Part shown: in pieces, positions 37,213-46,753 of the stretch | How the letters are laid out: each line of letters starts with the position of its first letter | How positions within the stretch are numbered: the first letter of the stretch is position 1 | Assembly (NCBI GenBank): GCA_965224025.1 | Contig: OZ245033.1 | Span: forward strand, 2,432,001 to 2,496,000 | Direction: 5' to 3' | Length of the DNA: 64,000 nucleotides | Source of the DNA: Candidatus Multivorans sp. | GTDB lineage: Bacteria; Acidobacteriota; Thermoanaerobaculia; Multivoradales; Multivoraceae | Notes under the pieces: generated by a model | Databases searched by the model: none | Told to the model about the DNA's origin: nothing | The model's input: the letters and a program-made list of their open reading frames with translations, nothing else | Made by a program: the position numbers and the translations under genes

Positions 37213-37280
37213 GGGCCGAGAGCGGCTGGGGGTCGGTCGCGGTTGCAACCGGCCGGTCGGGGAGCGTCGTTGGTCGGGTG

Positions 37281-37407
37281 GCGACGGCACTCCTGGCGGC
37301 GGAACCGCGCTGACGATCGCCGCAGCGCGATTCCACGGCATACCGAGATCAACCGGATACTGGCGCGGAAGATCTGCGCGGATCTCGGGGTCGAGCGGAT
37401 CCCCTGA
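37281..37407 (+). pseudogene. 3' fragment of hicA
   Basis: About 127 bp nearly identical to 45119-45245 (RHS(W/R)RNRADDRRSAIPRHTEINRILARKICADLGV); no 5' end and no hicB. Confidence 0.85.
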
Positions 37408-37419
37408 GCCGTTGCGCTA

Positions 37420-38307
37420 TCAGTCGCCGCCGCCGCCGCCGGTGCTCCCGGCTTCTGCGGCCAGCACGTCGGACTCGAGCATCCGCGCGCCGCGCAGCGT
37501 GTTGCCCATCGCGTAGTTGCCCTCGTGGCAGGCGTACTCGTAGACGAGTTCCGGGCGGTTCCTCCAGATGTACTCGCCGGACCAGGCCGTCTGCCAGGTG
37601 GCCGGATCGTCCATCGTGAACCGGTAGAGGATGTCGCCGTTCGGCTGCAGGGTCAGGCGCTCCGTGGCGTGCAGCTCCTGGGTCGATCCGCGCAGGAACG
37701 TCCTGGGGTGGAAGTTCACGGAGTCGATGACCAGGGTGTCGCCCTCCCACCAGCCGATGGAGTCGCCGAGCCACTTCCGCTCTTCGGGACTCGGATGCTC
37801 GGAGTTCAGGCGCACGATGCGGGCGTCGTGGACCATTTCGATCAGGATCATGATGTGGTCTTCGGTCTGCACCGCCCGCTTGTAGTTGTTGTAGCCGCTC
37901 GGAAGCGTCGGCGTGGCGCCGGTGAAACCGACGATGCAGCGCTCGGTGACCGGCAGCGACTCGGGGCCGTCGTAGGGACCGGGGCCCTCGATGTCGAGCC
38001 ACCACGCGGAGCCGTCGTTCGGTCGGCGCAGTTGGTCGCGCGCCGCCCTTTTCGCCTTTGCGGCATCGGTCCTTTCCGGCATGCGGCCGTTCGGCGGGTC
38101 GACGATGATCGACGTCCGGAACTTGCCGTCCACCGAGAAGGCCTCGGTGCCGAAATCGAGCCAGAAGAAGTTGTAGCCGCCCACGTTGCCGGCCAGATCG
38201 GGCCGACCACCGGGAGTGCGCTTGATCTCGTCGTCGGCCGCCAGGGCAGGCGTCGTGATCAGGAGCAGGACTATGGCGATCAGGGCCGCCGGGGCTCCGG
38301 CTTTCAT
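37420..38307 (-). CDS. Secreted conserved hypothetical protein, paralog 2 (64-aa internal deletion)
   Basis: Signal peptide; PDL, ERCIVG, EMVHDARIV, GDSIGWWEGDTLVIDS and YEYACHEGNY; highly similar to 38330-39409. Confidence 0.8.
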   Translation of the reverse strand: MKAGAPAALIAIVLLLITTPALAADDEIKRTPGGRPDLAGNVGGYNFFWLDFGTEAFSVDGKFRTSIIVDPPNGRMPERTDAAKAKRAARDQLRRPNDGSAWWLDIEGPGPYDGPESLPVTERCIVGFTGATPTLPSGYNNYKRAVQTEDHIMILIEMVHDARIVRLNSEHPSPEERKWLGDSIGWWEGDTLVIDSVNFHPRTFLRGSTQELHATERLTLQPNGDILYRFTMDDPATWQTAWSGEYIWRNRPELVYEYACHEGNYAMGNTLRGARMLESDVLAAEAGSTGGGGGD

Positions 38308-38329
38308 TCTGTGTCCACCAGGTTTTCGA

Positions 38330-39409
38330 TCAGTCGCCGCTGCCGGCCCCGGTGCTGGCGGCCTTCGCGGCCAGTGCGTCGGCCTCGAGCACCCGCGCGC
38401 CGCGCAGCGTCCCGCCCATCGAGTAGTTGCCTTCGTGGCAGGCGTACTCGTAGACATTCGCCGGGCTGCGCATCCAGATGTACTCGCCGGACCAGGGGAC
38501 GTCCCAGGTGGCCGGATCCTCGATCGTGAACTGGTAGAGGATGTCGCCGTTCGGCTGCAGCGTGAGGCGCTCCGTGACGTGGGATTCCTGGGTGGCGCCG
38601 CGCAGGACGGCCTTCGGGTGGAAGTTGCGCGAGTCGATGACCAGGGTGTCGCCTTCCCACCAGCCGACCGAGTGGCCGAGCCACTTCCGCTCTTCGGGGC
38701 TCGGGTGCTCGGCGTTCAGGCGCACGATCCGGGCGTCGTGGACCATCTCGATCAGGATCATGATGTGGTCCTCGGTCTGAACCACGCGCTTGAAGTTGTT
38801 GTAGAGGCTCGGGAAGGTCGGCGTGGCGCCGGTGAAGCCGACGATGCAGCGCTCGGTCACCGGAAGCGTCTCCGGGCCGTCGTACGGGCCGTGGCCCTCG
38901 ATGTCGAGCCACCAGGCGGAGCCGTCGTTGGGCCGGCGTAGCCGGCGGCGCTCGGCGGCCCTCGCCTTGCCGGCCTCGGTCATCTCCGGCATGCGGCCGT
39001 TCGGAGGATCGAAGATGATCGAGGTCCGGAACTTGCCGTCGACCGCGAATGCCTCGGTCCCGGCCTCGACCCAGAATCGGTTGTAGCCGCCCACGTTGCC
39101 GGCGCCGCCCGTGGTCCCGTCGCCGCCGACCGGCGGGGGCTTGCGGTTCGGATCGGAGATCTGGTGCCGATCCTGGCGGTACTGGGCCGCATCGGCCTCG
39201 ATCTTCTCGGCGTCTTCCGTAGAGAGGAAGAGGTTCTCGCCGTACTTTTCGGGCCGCTGGAGCGGCGTCAGGGTGCCGGCGTCGAAGGTGCCGGTCAGGT
39301 CGGGCTTGCCGTTGGCGGCGCGTTTGATCTCGCCTTCGGCGGCCAGGGCAGGGGCCGCGAACAGCAGCACGACGAGGGCGGTCAGAGCTGCGGGGACTCG
39401 GACTCTCAC
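38330..39409 (-). CDS. Secreted conserved hypothetical protein, paralog 1 (integration target)
   Basis: GGAGG-N7-GTG start; signal peptide; GKPDLTG, TPLQRP, GWWEGDTLVIDS and YEYACHEGNY. Confidence 0.82.
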   Translation of the reverse strand: MRVRVPAALTALVVLLFAAPALAAEGEIKRAANGKPDLTGTFDAGTLTPLQRPEKYGENLFLSTEDAEKIEADAAQYRQDRHQISDPNRKPPPVGGDGTTGGAGNVGGYNRFWVEAGTEAFAVDGKFRTSIIFDPPNGRMPEMTEAGKARAAERRRLRRPNDGSAWWLDIEGHGPYDGPETLPVTERCIVGFTGATPTFPSLYNNFKRVVQTEDHIMILIEMVHDARIVRLNAEHPSPEERKWLGHSVGWWEGDTLVIDSRNFHPKAVLRGATQESHVTERLTLQPNGDILYQFTIEDPATWDVPWSGEYIWMRSPANVYEYACHEGNYSMGGTLRGARVLEADALAAKAASTGAGSGD

Positions 39410-39543
39410 TCTGTTTCCTCCAGGGTTTTCAGGGGCTGTCGGGAAGTCTCGGAAACTCTCGAAAAATCTATGTGGATCAAGGGTTTGCGACGTTAACCGG
39501 CCTTCACGTGATACTGTGCGGTTTCGCAGGCTCCCAGCGACAA

Positions 39544-39598
39544 TGTGGGACCCGGTGAGGGACTGGCTGAGGGTCACGGACAAAAAGGAGTATGGGAC
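39544..39598 (+). repeat. Putative integrase arm-binding sites
   Basis: TGTGGGAC (39544), TGAGGGAC (39556) and TGAGGGTC (39568) at a 12-bp period, plus TATGGGAC (39591). A matching pair GTTGGGTC/TGCGGGAC lies at 45414/45426. Confidence 0.55.
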
Positions 39599-39618
39599 AC
39601 GGAGGGAGATTCCGTCAG

Positions 39619-40811
39619 ATGCCAAGGAGGAAGCTGACCGCCGCGTTCGTGCGGTCCGTCGACCGGGCTGGAAAGTACGGTGACCAGCACGGGCTCATTC
39701 TACGCGTCCGCCCGACCGGCTCCAAACAGTGGATCTGGCGTGGCACCGTTGCGGGCCGCCGGGTCGATCTCGGGCTGGGTGGCTATCCCTACACGACCCT
39801 GCGCGAGGCCCGCGACCGGGCGTTCGAGTACCGGAGGGCCGCCAGGTCCGGCCGCCACCCGAAGGCGCTCAGCAAGCGCGTCCCGACCTTCTCGGAGGCG
39901 GCCGAGCGCGTGATCGAGATGCACCGCTCTTCCTGGCGGGCCTGCAGCGCCAGCGACGAGGACTGGCGCCGCACGCTACGCCTCTACGCCATGCCCCGTT
40001 TGGGGCGATGCGAGTGAGCGAGATCAGCACGGCGGACATCATGGCGGTGCTGCAGCCGATATGGGGCGCGAAGGCCGTGACGGCAAGGCGCGTCCGACAG
40101 CGGATCGGAGCGGTCATGAGGTGGGCGATCGCGCGGGGCTACCGGGCCGACAATCCCGCAGGCGACGCGGTTACCGCGGCGTTGCCGCGAAACGCAGCGC
40201 AGCCGGAGCACTTCCGTGCGCTGCCACATAACGAGGTGGCGGCGGTGCTGGCGAAGGTGCGGCAGTCGGAGGCCGGTCCCTGTGCGCGGCTCTCCCTGGA
40301 GTTTCTGATCCTGACTGCGGCGAGAGCAGGCGAAGTCCGGCACGCGCGCTGGGTCGAGGTTGACCGAGCCGGCAGGGTCTGGGCGATTCCGGCCTCACGG
40401 ATGAAGGCCAGCCGGGAACATCGCGTTCCGCTAGCGCGACGGGCGCTTGAAGTGCTCGACGAGGTCAGGAACCTCGGGGACGGCTCGCCACTAATCTTCC
40501 CCTCGTCGCATACAGGCAGAACCCTGAGCTCCGGCGTGTGGTGGAAGCTCCTGCGCCGCCTTGACCTCGACTGCACGGTTCACGGATTCCGCAGTTCGTT
40601 TCGCGACTGGTGCGGGGAGAACGGGGTGCCGCGCGAACTCGCCGAGGCTTGCCTCGCCCACGCGATCGGCAACCAGGCCGAAGCCGCGTACGCGCGTTCC
40701 GACTTGTTGGAGCGGCGGCGTCGCGTGATGGAGGACTGGGGTCAGTACGCGAACGACGACCATCTCGATCCTGCTAGCGCTGGAACTACCTCTGCTGTCG
40801 GATTGGACTGA
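39619..40811 (+). pseudogene. P4-like tyrosine integrase with arm-DNA-binding domain; one frameshift near 40005
   Basis: MPRRKLTAAFV...GLILRV...LGLGGYPYTTLREAR; after the shift: LTAARAGEVR, RMKASREHRVPL, VHGFRSSFRDW, LAHAIG and AYARSDLLERRR. The shift lies in TTGGGGCG. Confidence 0.88.
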
Positions 40812-41203
40812 GACTATCTGGTACTTAAGTTCAAGAACCAGCCGCTCGGCCGCTTGACCGACGGGGCGGTGGCACGCGATCTTAGTAGCTACCACAAGAC
40901 TAGCCGGCGCTGATCACCCGGCCGTGAGCGGTGCGGGGCGGCCAACTACTGCGTTGGTCTAAGACTGGAGCAGAACCGGCGCCGTGGGGCGCGAAGTGTG
41001 TGTGGGAGCCGAACGGGTCTGTTTCGGCACACTGAGTGGCCGTCGGATAATCGCTGCCGAGAAGAGAGGGCGCGGTTGACCAGTCAAGCGTCTTGCTCGG
41101 CGCTCAGATCCTTCTGGTCAAGGAGGTCAAGAAGATACAGGGCGGAAACGAACTGATCGCCGGCATTGACTCTCATTCCGTGCTGACGAGCATTTACACC
41201 GAT

Positions 41204-41740
41204 GGCTCTTCAGGGTTTCGAGTGGAACGTGAGTGAATCGGGGTAGAGTTCGAGTCCACCGAGATGGAAGTAGATGGCGTTGCGGAAGCGGTTGCGATTT
41301 CGATAGCCGCGGGCGGTTTTCTTGAGGGACTGTATGACCGAGTTGATGCCTTCCAGGCGGGCGTTGGTCACTCCTTGCTCGATGGCGTTGAGCATGCCGT
41401 CGAGATGAGCTTTGATCATCCTTGCGACCTTCTTCATGGGCTCCAGGCGGCAGCGGATCGCCCACGAGTACCAGCCCTCGTAGGTGGCCCGGGCCTCGTC
41501 GCGGTCCGAGGTCTCCCACATCAGCATCGCCAACTCCTTTAGATGCCAGCAGCGGGCGGTCTTCGACGTGCCGTCGATCAAGTCCTTGAAGCGGACCCAG
41601 GAGCGCACCGGCACATGGTCAGGGTGATACAGCCACAGGTAGCGCGTCTTGGCCAGACTGTCGTCGCCACGGCTCCGCAGAAGCCGGTGCTCCTCGCGGC
41701 GCACCTTGTCCACGGCCTCGCCGAGGCGGTTCCTGGCCCG
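41204..41740 (-). pseudogene. ISL3-family transposase 3' remnant with terminal IR
   Basis: AVDKVRREE, KTRYLWL and TNARLEGINSVIQSLKKTARGYRN; GGCTCTTC terminus at 41204; N-terminal part missing. Confidence 0.85.
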
Positions 41741-41945
41741 GTACCGACGCCGCGCCACGGTAGCTAGGCGGCTGCGGCCTGCGCGAGTTGTGAGGAGGCC
41801 ACCAGACGGATGATGCGAACGAATGGATAGCCGCCCTGGTCACGGGGTTTCTCCTGGACAGCTTGGGAGTGTGGCAGGGCGATGCGACTCGGAGCACCAG
41901 GATTGGAAGGAGTGGCGGAGTTCGTGCGGGTGGTGGAGGTCCACG

Positions 41946-41997
41946 TGTTGGGGGCAACTGTAAAGGTCCCGTTCGTGGCAACCGAAAACGGCACACT
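41946..41997 (+). mobile_element. Orphan end of a second IS21-like element
   Basis: TGTTGGGGGCAACTGTAAAGGTCCC...GGCAACCGAAAACGGCACACT: a TG terminus with reiterated internal sites, different from the ends of the adjacent IS21. Confidence 0.5.
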
Positions 41998-42174
41998 CCG
42001 CGGTTTGTCGGAGGTCGTTCGTCGTTCGATACTGCTGGTTTCGCCAACAGCCATGGAGTGTTGGCAACGTTCGGAAAGTGAGCCACCCAACGTTTGGAAA
42101 GTGAGCCACCTCGGCCGTGTTGAGTGTACGCGAGTCTTCTCTCGTCGGTCCCCCTTGAGTCAGTAGCAGTAGTG

Positions 42175-42267
42175 GCCGCGGTAGCTGTGGGAAACCGGTC
42201 TGCCGGTTTTCCAAGGCGGTGCGGGAAACGGTCCGCCGTTTTCCGCGGCGCCGGCAGCTTCCGCAGC
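42175..42267 (-). other. Multi-stem structured element in the IS21 3' region
   Basis: Minus strand: GCTGCGGAAGCTG...CAGCTACCGCGGC encloses GCGGAAAACGG-CGGA-CCGTTTCCCGC and TGGAAAACCGG-CAGA-CCGGTTTCCCA. Confidence 0.55.
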
Positions 42268-42335
42268 TGGCCGCCGGTGCGGTGCTCTCGGCGGCGGCGC
42301 CGCGGCGGTCCGGTTGCGCGTCGTGGGGTCCGGAT

Positions 42336-43086
42336 TCACGAGGGGCTTCTCCGCGGCCGTGTCCGATAGGAGGAGCCCTTTGTGGCAAGGATGTGGGCGT
42401 GGTGGGAGAGGCGGTCGAGCAGGGCCGTGGTGAGCTTCTCGTCGCCGAATACGCGGACCCATTCGGAGAAGGCGAGGTTGGAGGTGACGATGGTCGAGCG
42501 GCGCTCGTAGCGGTCGGCGAAGACGTTGAAGAGCAGCTCGCCGCCGGCGCGGTCGAGGGCACGAAGCCGAGCTCGTCGCAGATCAGGAGGTCGATCCGCT
42601 GAAGCCGCTGCTGGAGGCGGCCCAGCTCCCGCTGGTCGCGGGCTTCGATCAGGTCGCGGACGAGGTCGGAGGCCTTGCGGAACCAGACCCGGCGGCGGCG
42701 CTTCGCGGCCTCGATGCCCAGCGCGATCGCGAGATGCGTCTTGCCGGTGCCGATGGGTCCGACCAGGACGACATCGTCGCCGCGGTCGATGTAGTCGCAG
42801 GCCGCCAGCTCTCGCAGTTCGGCTTGGACACTCCTTGCAGCGCCTCGAAGTCGATCTGCTCGAGCGTCTTGCGGTCGGGGAAGCGGGCCGCCCGCGGCCG
42901 GCGCTCGACGGCGCGGGCCTCCCGATCCCGGATCTCGGCCTCGAGCAGTTGCCAGAGGTAGTCCTCGTAGTCCCACTGCGCGTCCTGGGCCTGACGCGCC
43001 CGCTGCTCGTAGTCGCGCAGCACGGAAGGCATCTTGAGCGTCTTGAGGCCCTCGGCGATGACGGCTCTGCGCGCGGCCCGGCTCAC
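42336..43086 (-). pseudogene. istB: IstB helper ATPase with two frameshifts
   Basis: ARFPDRKTLE, GPIGTGKTHLA, LLICDELGFVP and RYERRSTIVTSNLAFSEW...ALLDRL are spread over three frames (shifts near 42825 and 42560). Confidence 0.88.
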
Positions 43087-44594
43087 GATGCCGCCTCCTG
43101 AAGCAGCACGTCGAAGTCGGCGGTGCGAGCGCTCTCGACCTCGTGGCCCCGGAGCGGCTCGGGCACCTCCATCCGGGGCGCGGAGCTTCGCTCGACAAGT
43201 CCCAGCAGGTCGAAGCGGCCGGCGGCCAGGGCTTCCTCGAGAGCGGAGGCGACCTCTTCGCTGCCGTGGTCCACAACCACGCTCAGCAGCTTGGCGAAGA
43301 GCCGCGCCGTCTCCAGGGCGCCGTGCCGCAACTCCAGCATTCTCCATAGCTTGCGGTACGCCGGACCGAGCTCTGCGAGCAGCTCCGGAGCGACTTGGCG
43401 CACCGCTTGAGGTTTCCGAGACAGCTCCTCGAAGTAGTGCGCGTAGCGCACCAGGCGCTGTCCCGGCCGCACAAGGTCGCAGCGGTACTCCGCGTCGCGA
43501 CAGGAGAAGACGATGTCGCTGACGCCGACGAGGGCGTGGATCTCGAGGCTCTTCCAGCGCGAGGGAACCGAGTAGGTGGCGCCGCCCAACTGCACCGTCG
43601 CCCGCCGCGAAGCCCGCACGATCTTGAGCTTCCTTGGCTCAAAGCCGGCCGCCGGCAACTCTCGCAGCGCCTCCTGCTCCTCCTCCCACCGGGCGCGCTC
43701 ACTGTGTGCCGCGTCGACCGAAGCCAGCACCTCGCCTGCGATCTGCTCCAGAGTGCGCCCTTGGGGTACCGGACTCATGTGAGCCAGACGGATTCCCTTG
43801 CCGCGAGACTCCACGCTCCCCTTGTCGTGCCCCTCGCCGGGGCGGGCGAAGCACGGCTCGAACAGGTAATGGCTCACCAGCGCCTGGAATCGATCCGTCA
43901 ACTGACGCTCGGTGCCGACCCGGCGACGCACAGCCGCACTCAGATTGTCGTAGACCAGACGCAGCGGCACGCCGCCGAAGTGAGCGAACGCCCGCACATG
44001 GCCGTCGAGGAACGCCACCTGGTCGCAGCGGTCGTAAAGCCACGCGAACGAACGGCCCGAGTACGGCAGGTGCAGCAGGAACTTCCACACCCGGTGAGCC
44101 ACGCCGTCCTCCTCCACCGTCACCTCGAAGAACCCGGGTGGCGCGCTCCGCGCCACACGCGAACCTCTCCGGGTGCGAGTCATCGAGCACACGGAAGGCA
44201 GTCCACCTGGCCGCACTCGCCGGCACGGTGCACCAGCGGAATAAACGTCTCCCGCCGCTGACGCTTCCACTCCCGCACGTAGCTGCGCACCGTCGTGATC
44301 CCCGACCTCGTAGCCATCCTCCAGCAACTGGCGATGAAGACGCACAGCCGTCAGACGCTGCTTCGCCGTTGTCCGGCGAGACCATGTCGTCAACAACTCC
44401 TCCAGACGAGGCGCCACACCCTCCGTCACCAACCGGCGCCGGGGCTTGCTCTCCACCCGCACCGGCTCGCTCTGATCCAGGTACTTGCGCACCGTGTTGC
44501 GGCTCACACCGTGCTCGCGGGCCACCGAGCGCTGGCTCCGACCCTCCCTCAGCACCTGGTGCCGAATAACATGAACCTGATCCATCCTCAGCAA
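43083..44594 (-). pseudogene. istA: IstA transposase, internally disrupted
   Basis: HTH VSRNTVRKYL, LVYDN and GHDKGSVE. An extra G near 44300 plus a 68-bp insertion (44133-44200) keep the ORF open but put the PLVHRAGECGQVDF catalytic segment out of frame. Confidence 0.85.
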
Positions 44595-44844
44595 ATCCTT
44601 CCTCCGATCGCGTTGGTCTCATGTACAAGACCAAGCTACCGGCAAAGGGCCGAGGGTGGATCACTTTCTGCCCGTTGGGTGGCTCAGTTTCCGAGCGATG
44701 CCTCCAGAAGCGGTGAGGGCGTGCTTTGGAAGGCAGTAGGCGACGAGCGGCCGGGAACTGCTGCGGGGGTAGAGTCTGCTTTGCGGGCTGCCTAACTGGC
44801 CGGGCACCAACCACAGCTGTCTTCGAGAGAGGAGCCGGAGGAAG

Positions 44845-45060
44845 ATGCAGGAGTACACCGCGATCGTCAAACGGGCCGGCGACTGGTGGATCGGCTGGAT
44901 TGAAGAGGTGCCGGGCGTCAACTGCCAGGAGCGGAACCGCGAGGAGTTGCTGGAGACACTGGCCATCACCCTGGCCGAGGCGCTGGAGTTCAATCGGCAG
45001 GCAGCGCTGGCTGCGGCGGGCGAGGGCTACACCTTGGAGAAGGTCGTCGTCGCTACATGA
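44845..45060 (+). CDS. hicB: HicB-family antitoxin (short, partial RNase H fold)
   Basis: YTAIVKRAGDWWIGWIEEVPGVNCQERNREELLETL; RBS GGAGG. Confidence 0.85.
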   Translation: MQEYTAIVKRAGDWWIGWIEEVPGVNCQERNREELLETLAITLAEALEFNRQAALAAAGEGYTLEKVVVAT

Positions 45061-45245
45061 AGCGCAGAGCCCTTCTGCGGCATCTTCGAAGACAGGGCTG
45101 CGAGTTGGTGCGCGAGGGGCGACGGCATTCCTGGTGGCGGAACCGCGCCGACGATCGCCGCAGCGCGATTCCTCGGCATACCGAGATCAACCGGATACTG
45201 GCGCGGAAGATCTGCGCGGATCTCGGGGTCGAGCTGGTCCCCTGA
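45057..45245 (+). CDS. hicA: HicA-family toxin
   Basis: MKRRALLRHLRRQGCELVREGRRHSWW...IPRHTEI...ICADL; ATGA overlap with hicB. Confidence 0.88.
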   Translation: MKRRALLRHLRRQGCELVREGRRHSWWRNRADDRRSAIPRHTEINRILARKICADLGVELVP

Positions 45246-45535
45246 GCCCTTGAGCCCGGTGGCTTCCCGACGGGGTGCGCGGGATCGGGAGCTTGTTCCA
45301 GCCGTCTCACGCGTGCGGCCGGCGCGGCCGCAAGTAGGGCTGGGCGCCACTGAACCCTCCCGCTCGAGCCGCCGCCATCCTCTTGTGGTCTGGCTTGAGC
45401 ATGGCGCCCGCCGGTTGGGTCAGAGTGCGGGACTCTGGGGTACAGCAGTTCCCTAAACCATTGCAGAATAAGGACTTACGCCGCCTAGAGTCCCAACTCT
45501 CATTCTGTTTCCTCCAGTTTCGATTGGGTTCGGGG

Positions 45536-45541
45536 ATTGTA
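45536..45541 (-). promoter_or_regulatory. Putative -10 element (TACAAT) of the displaced native promoter
   Basis: Minus-strand TACAAT about 20 bp upstream of GGAGG-N7-ATG in attR. Confidence 0.4.
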
Positions 45542-45568
45542 CCGGAAGGCAAAGCGCACCTTCGGCCG

Positions 45569-46618
45569 TCAGGGTGTCGGCTTGGAGCCCTCGATCCGTC
45601 GCCTCGGCAGCGGACGCTCAGGGACATCCTCAAGCAGTCCGCCGTGGCCGAGCGAGGTGATGTCGCGGCGGGTCAACCGATCGCCGGCGAGCAGGCGGGG
45701 CAACACGAGGTCGACGATGTTCCGCTTCGGGCTGCGGGCGCAACCGGGGGCGCCGAGAACGGGCGTACCGCCGAGTTCGGCGAGCAGCAACAGGTTGCCG
45801 GGGTCGACCGGCGCGCCATAGCAGATGACCGACCCGCCGGCTGCCTCGATCGCGCTGGGAGCGAGATCGTGGCGGTCCTGGATCGCCGTTTCACCGGCGA
45901 GGATCAGGAGATCGACTAGCGGTGCGAGTTCGGCCACCGCAGCGGTCAGACCGGGGGCGCCCCGCTCGCCGTCGAGGGGCGCGAAACGAACTGTCGCGAG
46001 GTCGGTTCCGAGATCGTCCAGCCGCTGGCGGAACGCCTTCTCGAAGCCAGCGACGAGCCGCTCGCGTCCAACTGATTGGCTTGCTGCCACGGTGCCTGAG
46101 ACGATCAAGCCGGCATTCCGGCGTGGAAGTGCGTCAAGCCGGACAAGGGGGCTGGAGGCGAGGCTCTCCGCCGCGGCGACCGTCTCTTCGGGCAGAGCGT
46201 AGGGGAGGATCTTGGTCGTCGCGACCATCTTGCCGACGCGTGCGACGCTGTGGTCGGGGAGGGTGGCCAGGGTCACGCCGTCGCACTCATTGATGCGGTT
46301 CAGGGCTTCCGCGTCGACGCGCAGCAGGCCGAGCGTCTCCGCGTGCAGGTTGACTCGGCCCGTGGTCGGACCGCGAAGGACGAGCCCCGGGCCCGCGACC
46401 GCCTCGCTGATCCTTCGGGCGGCTTCGTTCTCGTCGACATCGCCGGGTTCCAGCCGGGCGGCGTAGACCTCTGAACGGCCCAGCGCGGTCAGGAGAGCCA
46501 CTTCCTCCCGGCCGAGCGCCCGACCCTTGCGCAGCACGCGGCGGCCATCGCCGTCGTACGCGTTGTGGCCGAGCACTGCCCCCAGGGCCTCGGTGAGCGG
46601 TGTGGACTCGAACTTCAT
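45569..46618 (-). CDS. Molybdopterin-binding protein (MoeA-like/MoCF biosynthesis domain)
   Basis: ALGAVLGHN, LRKG, GDVDENEAA, TTGRVNL, GAPVDPGNLLLL, LGAPGCARSPK and LGHGGLL. Confidence 0.85.
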   Translation of the reverse strand: MKFESTPLTEALGAVLGHNAYDGDGRRVLRKGRALGREEVALLTALGRSEVYAARLEPGDVDENEAARRISEAVAGPGLVLRGPTTGRVNLHAETLGLLRVDAEALNRINECDGVTLATLPDHSVARVGKMVATTKILPYALPEETVAAAESLASSPLVRLDALPRRNAGLIVSGTVAASQSVGRERLVAGFEKAFRQRLDDLGTDLATVRFAPLDGERGAPGLTAAVAELAPLVDLLILAGETAIQDRHDLAPSAIEAAGGSVICYGAPVDPGNLLLLAELGGTPVLGAPGCARSPKRNIVDLVLPRLLAGDRLTRRDITSLGHGGLLEDVPERPLPRRRIEGSKPTP

Positions 46619-46645
46619 CTGCCGCCGAAACTACACCGCAAACAC

Positions 46646-46697
46646 TGGGCGCGCCGGCGTCCTCGCCGGCCTGTAGCCGCGGGTCTTCTGACCCGCG
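46646..46697. repeat. Compound REP-like palindromes, copy 2
   Basis: TGGGCGC-GCCGGCG-TCCT-CGCCGGC fused to CTGTAGCCGCGGGTCTTCTGACCCGCG. Confidence 0.75.
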
Positions 46698-46753
46698 GAC
46701 AACAACGCGCCTCGAAGCGGCGACCGTACTCCAACGATAAACTCCCATCCCCT

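Follow-up and report, generated by a model that had tools for sequence, protein, structure and literature searches.

Genomic islands with P4-like integrases usually, though not obligatorily, target the 3′ ends of tRNA or transfer-messenger RNA (tmRNA) genes, and excision of the skin element in sigK and of the nifD element of Anabaena restores a functional gene arrangement. Integration at the 5′ end of a protein-coding gene, with replacement of its promoter and 5′ sequence, is also already known, and in the papers cited here its targets are few, namely dusA and prfC: dusA-specific integrative elements carry dusA-associated integrases and replace the 5′ end of that gene (Farrugia et al., 2015; PMC4482086), experiments on the element IMEVchUSA3 showed that dusA gains a new promoter and has its reading frame restored (Durand et al., 2021; PMC8409611), and SXT acts likewise at prfC, according to the discussion of the latter paper. 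Here we describe a 6.1-kb island in a 64-kb stretch of the 5.14-Mb genome of Candidatus Multivorans sp. (G000, contig C1, 2432001-2496000; hereafter the window, in whose coordinates positions are given), which separates a gene that we call P1 (38330-39409, minus strand; 359 residues, a member of a secreted-protein family) from its native upstream region. The sequence between the attachment sites (39424-45495) is very probably the decayed remnant of a genomic island that integrated site-specifically at the translation-initiation site of P1. Its tyrosine integrase would have carried out the recombination, with the crossover inside (A)TGAGAGT, which is the start codon together with the five bases that follow. 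Because the arm nearest to the integrase brings a Shine-Dalgarno sequence and a start codon of its own, P1 keeps its reading frame but is preceded by element sequence. The native upstream region, ribosome-binding site (RBS) and ATG are left at the far attachment site, where they open a 16-codon open reading frame (ORF) that runs into the element. Attachment sites of the element family are found at no fewer than two paralogues, namely P1 and a P3-like gene.

In its mode of action the island resembles those at dusA: a tyrosine-integrase island sits in the 5′ end of a protein gene, bounded by an imperfect repeat (~21 bp at dusA), and supplies the replacement 5′ sequence, although the target here is neither dusA nor prfC. 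In the dusA system, as described in the accounts cited above, the crossover lies within the coding region and the first 35 residues change (61% identity to the native ones), whereas at P1 the core is the start codon itself with the five bases after it, so that nothing but the RBS, and possibly the start codon's first base, is altered and the host protein is untouched. Moreover, dusA is a single-copy housekeeping gene, unlike the present target, which belongs to a multi-copy secreted-protein family of which at least two paralogues have been used. The SXT/R391 integrative and conjugative elements differ in having a single conserved target, a large conjugative element and an altered N-terminus. 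P4/CP4-57-like islands share with this one the Arm-DNA-bind_3, Phage_int_M and Phage_integrase domains, an integrase beside one attachment site and the carriage of a copy of whatever part of the target is displaced, but here the target is not an RNA gene and it is the 5′ rather than the 3′ end that is replaced. The skin and nifD elements, in turn, interrupt a reading frame and possess an active, regulated recombinase, whereas P1 is intact and the recombinase beside it is broken.

The titles and abstract openings of the literature surveyed, supplements excluded, describe no integrase core located on a start codon or RBS. What sets this locus apart is a core that is the start codon itself, a multi-copy and uncharacterised secreted-protein family as the target, and the use of at least two of its members. 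The case would thus add a P4-like integrase clade with a start-codon core, in which translation and transcription signals are swapped and the protein stays the same. Because the element family uses more than one paralogue, it also offers a natural set of attB variants for asking how much of the initiation region the integrase needs. For annotators it is a warning that an intact gene may sit behind foreign expression signals, and the target family is both large, with 38 matches in this genome, and wholly uncharacterised.

The island is enclosed by a 22-bp direct repeat with a single mismatch, ACTCTCACTCTGTTTCCTCCAG at 39402-39423 (attL) and ACTCTCATTCTGTTTCCTCCAG at 45496-45517 (attR), as a first-pass annotation of the window had reported. 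Read on the minus strand, the repeat consists of a Shine-Dalgarno sequence, a start codon and AGAGT, and the two copies differ only in the initial base of that codon, which is GTG at P1 (39409-39407) and ATG in the orphan copy. Allowing up to three mismatches, there are exactly two copies in the window and none in each of 100 dinucleotide-preserving shuffles; genome-wide, the 14-bp RBS part occurs exactly only at the two copies, with one further match that has one mismatch, and the pattern GGAGGA-N6-NTGAGAGT is likewise confined to them. The attL copy comprises an element-borne Shine-Dalgarno sequence (CTGGAGGAAACAGA on the gene strand), GTG and AGAGT, with the likely crossover core at 39402-39409, as placed from the identity between attL and attR of sister elements described below. 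The attR copy comprises an RBS, ATG and AGAGT still joined to the native upstream region (45518-45568, minus strand), which extends over 51 bp between that RBS and the stop codon of a molybdopterin-binding-domain-like (MoeA-like) gene (45569-46618, minus strand; weak NCBIfam matches only) that is syntenic with P1 in relatives. This region aligns with the intergenic sequence between the MoeA-like gene and P1 in those relatives, including the conserved TACACT...CCAATCGAAAC of P1 orthologues, and the TACAAT box noted earlier near the orphan copy lies upstream of it at 45541-45536 on the minus strand. Inverted repeats are absent from the ends of the island, and G+C content is 0.58-0.62 in parts of the island as compared with ~0.69 outside it. 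Contigs assembled independently from the organism's own sequencing runs (X1 and X2) are identical to the window over 39290-42029 and 45205-46000, with 0 differences and 0 gaps, and both junctions, as well as a frameshift in the integrase, are therefore not errors of this assembly.

As the first-pass annotation had anticipated, an empty site exists in relatives. Of 24 same-genus genomes drawn, 22 have a match to the MoeA-like gene over all or nearly all of its length, and the proteins of the window were mapped on the 19 loci that were fetched around it. In ten of the 19, a P1 orthologue follows the MoeA-like gene uninterrupted: seven have the orthologue (90-93% amino acid identity) 48-75 bp past the MoeA-like stop codon, and three (G010, G020, G021) have a spacer of 129-235 bp with no gene within. 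Three more (G009, G015, G023) carry a 2-kb insert at the site, P1 is not adjacent in the other six, and none of the 19 has an integrase at the junction. The site is also uninterrupted in two additional genomes (G054 and G055) and at all four metagenome loci with a 92-96% identical P1; those were the best P1 relatives in metagenomes and come from other species, and no same-species empty site was found among them. The uninterrupted site reads ...TACACTCCGCCCATCCAATCGAAACCGGAGGACCCAACATGAGAGTCCGAGTCCCC..., and the two junctions of the window match its two halves: attR follows it up to ATGAGAGT and then diverges, and attL matches it from the RBS on. P1 itself is 90-94% identical to the orthologues that lie directly downstream of the MoeA-like gene, every one of which in the relatives starts with ATG.

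The position of the crossover can be narrowed with the sister elements of two relatives, G002 and G008, whose attR ends lie on separate contigs (G002:C107 and G008:C201). In G002, attL (CTGGAGGAAACGGAATGAGAGT) and attR (CCGGAGGACCCAACATGAGAGT) have a contiguous identity of only 8 bp, ATGAGAGT; in G008, where attR is GAGGAGGACGCAGAATGAGAGT, it spans only 10 bp, GAATGAGAGT. The G008 attR reads GAGGAGGACGCAGA-ATGAGAGT and then enters the element arm, its part before the ATG being a native P3-type RBS region, and the G002 attR reads CCGGAGGACCCAAC-ATGAGAGT followed by the same arm, with a native P1-type RBS region before the ATG. Because the sister attL and attR sites share only ATGAGAGT or GAATGAGAGT, strand exchange is placed in the start codon plus five bases, and the RBS at attL is borne by the element; the 7 bp ACTCTCA that had been proposed as the crossover thus coincide with the 7-8 bp TGAGAGT/ATGAGAGT obtained here. 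The proposal of a replacement RBS together with a GTG stands for the RBS, since the arm that carries it is conserved in three elements. It is uncertain for the GTG: both sister attL copies have ATG, so the G in the window may be a variant of the element or a later mutation.

Both element arms have homologues in sister elements. The attL-side (P′) arm, from attL to the start of the integrase (39424-39591), contains GGGAC-type repeats that may be arm-type integrase sites, and the 183-bp stretch between integrase and attL is conserved in the window, G002 and G008, including the RBS CTGGAGGAAAC(A/G)GA, even though two of the three elements sit at different paralogues. The attR-side (P) arm (45246-45495) has homologous counterparts immediately past ATGAGAGT in G010, G002 and G008, and it does not resemble the P genes (best E values 0.21 in blastn and 0.053 in tblastx). 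We considered whether the P′ arm might be a diverged copy of the native promoter and rejected this: its local alignment score against the window's own native flank is 17 (null 12.9 +/- 2.2; 138 of 2000 shuffles reach it), its scores against the native flanks of four relatives are 11-12 (reached by 1492-1730 of 2000 shuffles), and the five comparisons are no better than shuffles. P1 is thus cut off from its native upstream region, as had been claimed, and stands behind an arm without similarity to it.

To survey relatives of the integrase, its C-terminal 266 residues were compared with 42 genomes of the genus, of which 24 matched at E <= 1e-20; the survey took in 30 loci. Each of the four best non-self matches lies directly beside a P-family start codon, the two genes being divergently oriented. 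The integrases are full length in G008 (C275) and G002 (C80), both 89% identical, and fragments in G054 (89%) and G055 (84-85%). The distance from integrase start to P start is 184 bp in G002 and G008 and 183 bp in the window, and a weaker integrase fragment lies next to the start of P3 in G020. Integrases with at most 73% identity are not adjacent to P genes. The expectation that homologous integrases would lie beside the 5′ ends of the same gene family therefore holds for the closest four, and the contrary possibility, that they map to tRNA genes, does not: ARAGORN found no tRNA or tmRNA at any of the 30 integrase loci, no Rfam family was found at the 20 loci searched, and the window itself is without a tRNA gene.

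The sister elements also show that more than one member of the P family can serve as a target. Of the 17,086 bases aligned next to attL, the islands of G002 and G008 have 17,081 in common, whereas the P genes beyond attL agree at only 818 of 1017 positions (80.4%), the identity breaking at attL; on the attR side, the two are 99.0% identical over 1671 bp, up to the core, where the identity ends. One of the targets is a P1 orthologue (93% amino acid identity to P1 of the window) and the other is P3-like (76%), and the attR of the P3-like insertion lies just after the stop codon of a P2-like gene. Near-identical islands flanked by differing P genes, with identity ending at the core, indicate that one element used two paralogues, which bears out the suggestion that paralogues with similar initiation regions could be further targets. 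In the present genome, the tandem paralogue P2 (37420-38307, minus strand) has the ATG form of the repeat, as noted earlier (GCTTTCATTCTGTGTCCACCAG at 38300-38321), but its start region, CTGGTGGACACAGAATGAAAGC, lacks the core, with ATGAAAGC in place of ATGAGAGT. ATGAGAGT is similarly absent from the 21 other, dispersed paralogue starts that were inspected (at most 59% identity). Other paralogues of this genome were consequently dropped as candidate targets, and the alternative targets are those of the local P1/P3 subfamily seen in relatives. On the G002 attR contig, an integrase fragment (L085, 1216-1442; residues 216-293, 66-73% identity) lies ~50 bp upstream of the P1-type upstream region, which suggests tandem or successive elements at the same site.

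Several observations sit less easily with integration at P-gene start codons. Three relatives (G009:C2, G014:C1 and G005:C3) have 3′ integrase fragments of 75-80% identity with no P gene within 6 kb; these say little either way because the part of the gene nearest to the attachment site is missing. In G055, G054 and G020, a 5′-truncated integrase abuts a native-looking P3 upstream region instead of an element RBS: in G055 (L077, 2545-2720) and G054 (L078, 17990-18170) the integrase starts from about residue 88 and the joint lies ~58 nt before the ATG, and in G020 (L034, 4619-4807) a shorter piece, residues 94-151, is joined to a P3-type upstream region. As this joint is common to G055 and G054, and apparently the same in G020, it probably reflects one old event, and a deletion that removed the 5′ part of the integrase, attL and the original target paralogue would explain it. 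The G002 and G008 assemblies are fragmented (~210 and ~400 contigs), with the island split over contigs, so binning errors are possible. attL and attR agree at 21 of 22 positions in the window, compared with 16-17 of 22 in the sister elements (8-10 of them contiguous), which calls for a native RBS at P1 that by chance equalled that of the element, or for homogenisation at a later time; on the simplest reading, the element arm was copied from a host with a P1 site like this one, and homogenisation after integration is an alternative. The intact ORF is the one observation that points to continued expression of P1, and neither an excised circle nor an empty-site form was seen in contigs, from which rare variants drop out.

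The first-pass annotation had gone further and proposed an expression switch, in which the island would leave and re-enter its site in this organism, so that P1 alternates between the native promoter with ATG and element-driven expression with GTG. The geometry permits this, in that precise excision would rejoin the native upstream region, RBS and P1, and the near-identical elements at two paralogues show that the element family was recently mobile. We nevertheless regard an active switch as very unlikely and do not retain it, for the integrase frameshift is present in the X1 as well as the X2 contigs, an IS21-family element and an ISL3 fragment disrupt the island further, no excisionase-like ORF stood out between the integrase and the IS21 element (in an ORF list of 40790-42110, with no family scan), and no X1 or X2 contig joins 39401 to 45496 across the island, which is weak evidence because rare variants drop out of contigs. 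The only other integrase in the genome at E <= 1e-20 is 67% identical and lies at a different kind of site. Taken together, the frameshift, the ORF list and the absence of a joining contig mark the island as a remnant, and it is no longer mobile by its own integrase. Excision would once have restored the native state.

Two explanations dispense with site-specific integration by the island's integrase. The junctions might stem from homologous (Campbell-type) recombination or from insertion sequence (IS) activity, the integrase being a mere passenger; IS21 and ISL3 sequences do lie inside the island, and the 2-kb insert of G009, G015 and G023, which is flanked by ~95-bp native direct repeats and has no integrase, looks more homology-driven. 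We consider such an origin highly improbable for the island, as the 8-10 bp common to attL and attR in G002 and G008 are too short for homologous recombination, the inverted repeats of the IS21 element lie within the island and not at its ends, which have none, and the junction falls at the same core in elements at two paralogues. Alternatively, the orphan copy at 45496-45517 might be the stub of a deleted third paralogue, or the product of segmental duplication and deletion in the P array, which is prone to rearrangement: a second hicA fragment abuts P2, a hicBA pair lies beside the MoeA-like gene in G013, and P3 is missing in this genome. Beyond ATGAGAGT, however, the orphan copy enters the arm that is conserved in G010, G002 and G008 and is unlike P genes, from 45518 onward the sequence is the native MoeA-like/P1 intergenic region, and in three elements the distance between integrase and attL is constant at 183-184 bp. 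The stub reading was thus rejected on the dissimilarity of the arm (45246-45495) to P genes, and any origin of this kind is scarcely credible. Site-specific integration, by comparison, accords with three integrase domains, end repeats with the integrase near one end and an uninterrupted site in relatives, and its 5′-end character with a junction on the P1 start codon, an element-borne RBS and start codon, and intact P ORFs.

Integration leaves the reading frame of P1 as it was and exchanges the RBS for a GGAGGA of equal strength and spacing, and the native upstream region with its TACAAT box is now 6.1 kb from P1. As P1 and the target genes of the sister elements are all intact ORFs, P1 would now owe its transcription to the element, either to the arm or to read-through that begins further inside. 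A sigma-70 consensus scan found 0 sites in the element arm and 0 in the native region, and it is uninformative because it is blank in both alike. The N-terminus of P1 is signal-peptide-like, the protein matches no Pfam or NCBIfam family, all of its ESM Atlas neighbours are unnamed, and AlphaFold models are poor, with a predicted local distance difference test (pLDDT) score of 37.3 when built on the single sequence and of 49.6 when 13 paralogues were added.

At attR, the native RBS and ATG open the 16-codon ORF mentioned above (45503-45453, minus strand; MRVGTLGGVSPYSAMV), which has the same length and stops at the same position in the elements of G010, G002 and G008 (L029, L084 and L085). In G009 (L032), G023 (L038) and G015 (L036), the 2-kb insert in the MoeA-like/P1 spacer consists of genes for the alpha and beta subunits of a Rieske ring-hydroxylating dioxygenase, the alpha gene being fused in frame to the native start; the ~95-bp repeats that flank it comprise the 3′ end of the MoeA-like gene, the upstream region, the RBS and ATGAG. 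Recombination at the same core may have produced this insert too, or it may have come about by homology-driven insertion or duplication. One might go on to read the start-codon crossover as more than gene repair, namely as a two-way exchange of expression signals in which the P array offers promoterless cargo a range of landing sites for its expression, although we think this unlikely. Were it so, the element would give the host gene its own RBS and start codon and in return capture the host promoter, RBS and ATG to drive the sequence at its own end, namely the 16-codon ORF, conserved in length and running antisense into hicAB in the window, G010, G002 and G008; the dioxygenase pair fused in frame to ATGAG at the same site in three relatives would fall under the same scheme, which would be loosely integron-like but built on a P4-like integrase.

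The contents of the island are those of a decayed element. The integrase gene (39592-40811, plus strand) has the architecture of P4-like tyrosine integrases, with the Pfam domains Arm-DNA-bind_3 (PF13356), Phage_int_M (PF22022) and Phage_integrase (PF00589), and is split over two frames by a net 1-nt deletion near 40004; alignment with the intact 403-residue integrase of G002 (86% nucleotide identity) shows one gap column, at 40004, and the contigs of runs X1 and X2 contain the same frameshift. The translation shows RxxxGE, HxxR and a C-terminal Y-containing motif. The intact G002 integrase matches the integrase domain family NCBIfam NF007246 at E 1.3e-39 with 136 bits, against a curated cut-off of 434. 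Beyond the integrase lie an ISL3-family transposase fragment, the C-terminal part only (41210-41758, minus strand; Pfam DDE_Tnp_ISL3, profile positions 90-240 of 240), and an IS21-family element (42063-44702, minus strand; Pfam rve and IstB_IS21) with 48-nt inverted repeats at its ends, a broken istA (43083-44594) and an istB (~42400-43091) with a stop codon or frameshift. A tandem 23-bp repeat at 42065-42110 lies within the IS21 terminal inverted repeat, and the X1 and X2 contigs show many IS21 variants and joints, which indicates that the IS21 element is multi-copy in the sample.

HicAB toxin-antitoxin pairs are typical addiction modules, and one such pair occupies the integrase-distal end of the island (44845-45245, plus strand). 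It consists of a hicB-like ORF (44845-45060), which matches no Pfam family, and hicA (45057-45245; Pfam HicA_toxin), and the related elements of G002, G008, G010 and G054 carry this pair at the corresponding end. The second hicA fragment of the window (37266-37417, plus strand), 91% identical to 45104-45255, ends 2 bp from the stop codon of P2 and is likely the debris of an older element of like kind at P3, a paralogue found in most relatives and now missing here. Between a P-gene stop codon and the P3 upstream region, G055 and G054 carry what is left of an island, with hic genes beside that stop (hicB only in G055, hicA and hicB in G054). In the sister island of G002, the 10 ORFs scanned in the 17 kb beside the integrase encode six unknown proteins, a multihaem cytochrome, a cytochrome b, a hybrid histidine kinase and a TonB-dependent receptor, with no phage or conjugation genes among these 10.

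More distant integrases of the survey occupy other kinds of sites. In the class with 45-57% identity, three or four lie just past the 3′ ends of protein genes (L060, L061, L063 and L054), which encode a shikimate dehydrogenase (at two loci), a pyrroloquinoline quinone (PQQ)-dehydrogenase and a family-2 glycosyltransferase (GT2). The second integrase of the present genome (L069; G000:C1:1577952-1578689) lies near neither a P gene nor a tRNA or Rfam RNA, and two motifs of its upstream arm, TTTCAGGGG.T.TCG and GTGGGAC, recur in the island arm. Relatives of the element also occur in the kind of sample from which run X3 (labelled as a sponge metagenome) derives, as contigs of that run match the integrase at ~91-96% (39806-40723) and hicBA at ~93% (44757-45178). 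In addition, a ~57-bp repeat with a GC-rich hairpin, similar to repetitive extragenic palindromic (REP) sequences or miniature inverted-repeat transposable elements (MITEs), lies at 46642-46700 and has dozens of 83-100% matches per genome of the genus; hairpins resembling it are found beside the second integrase and, in G010, G020 and G021, within the longer spacers that separate the MoeA-like gene from P1.

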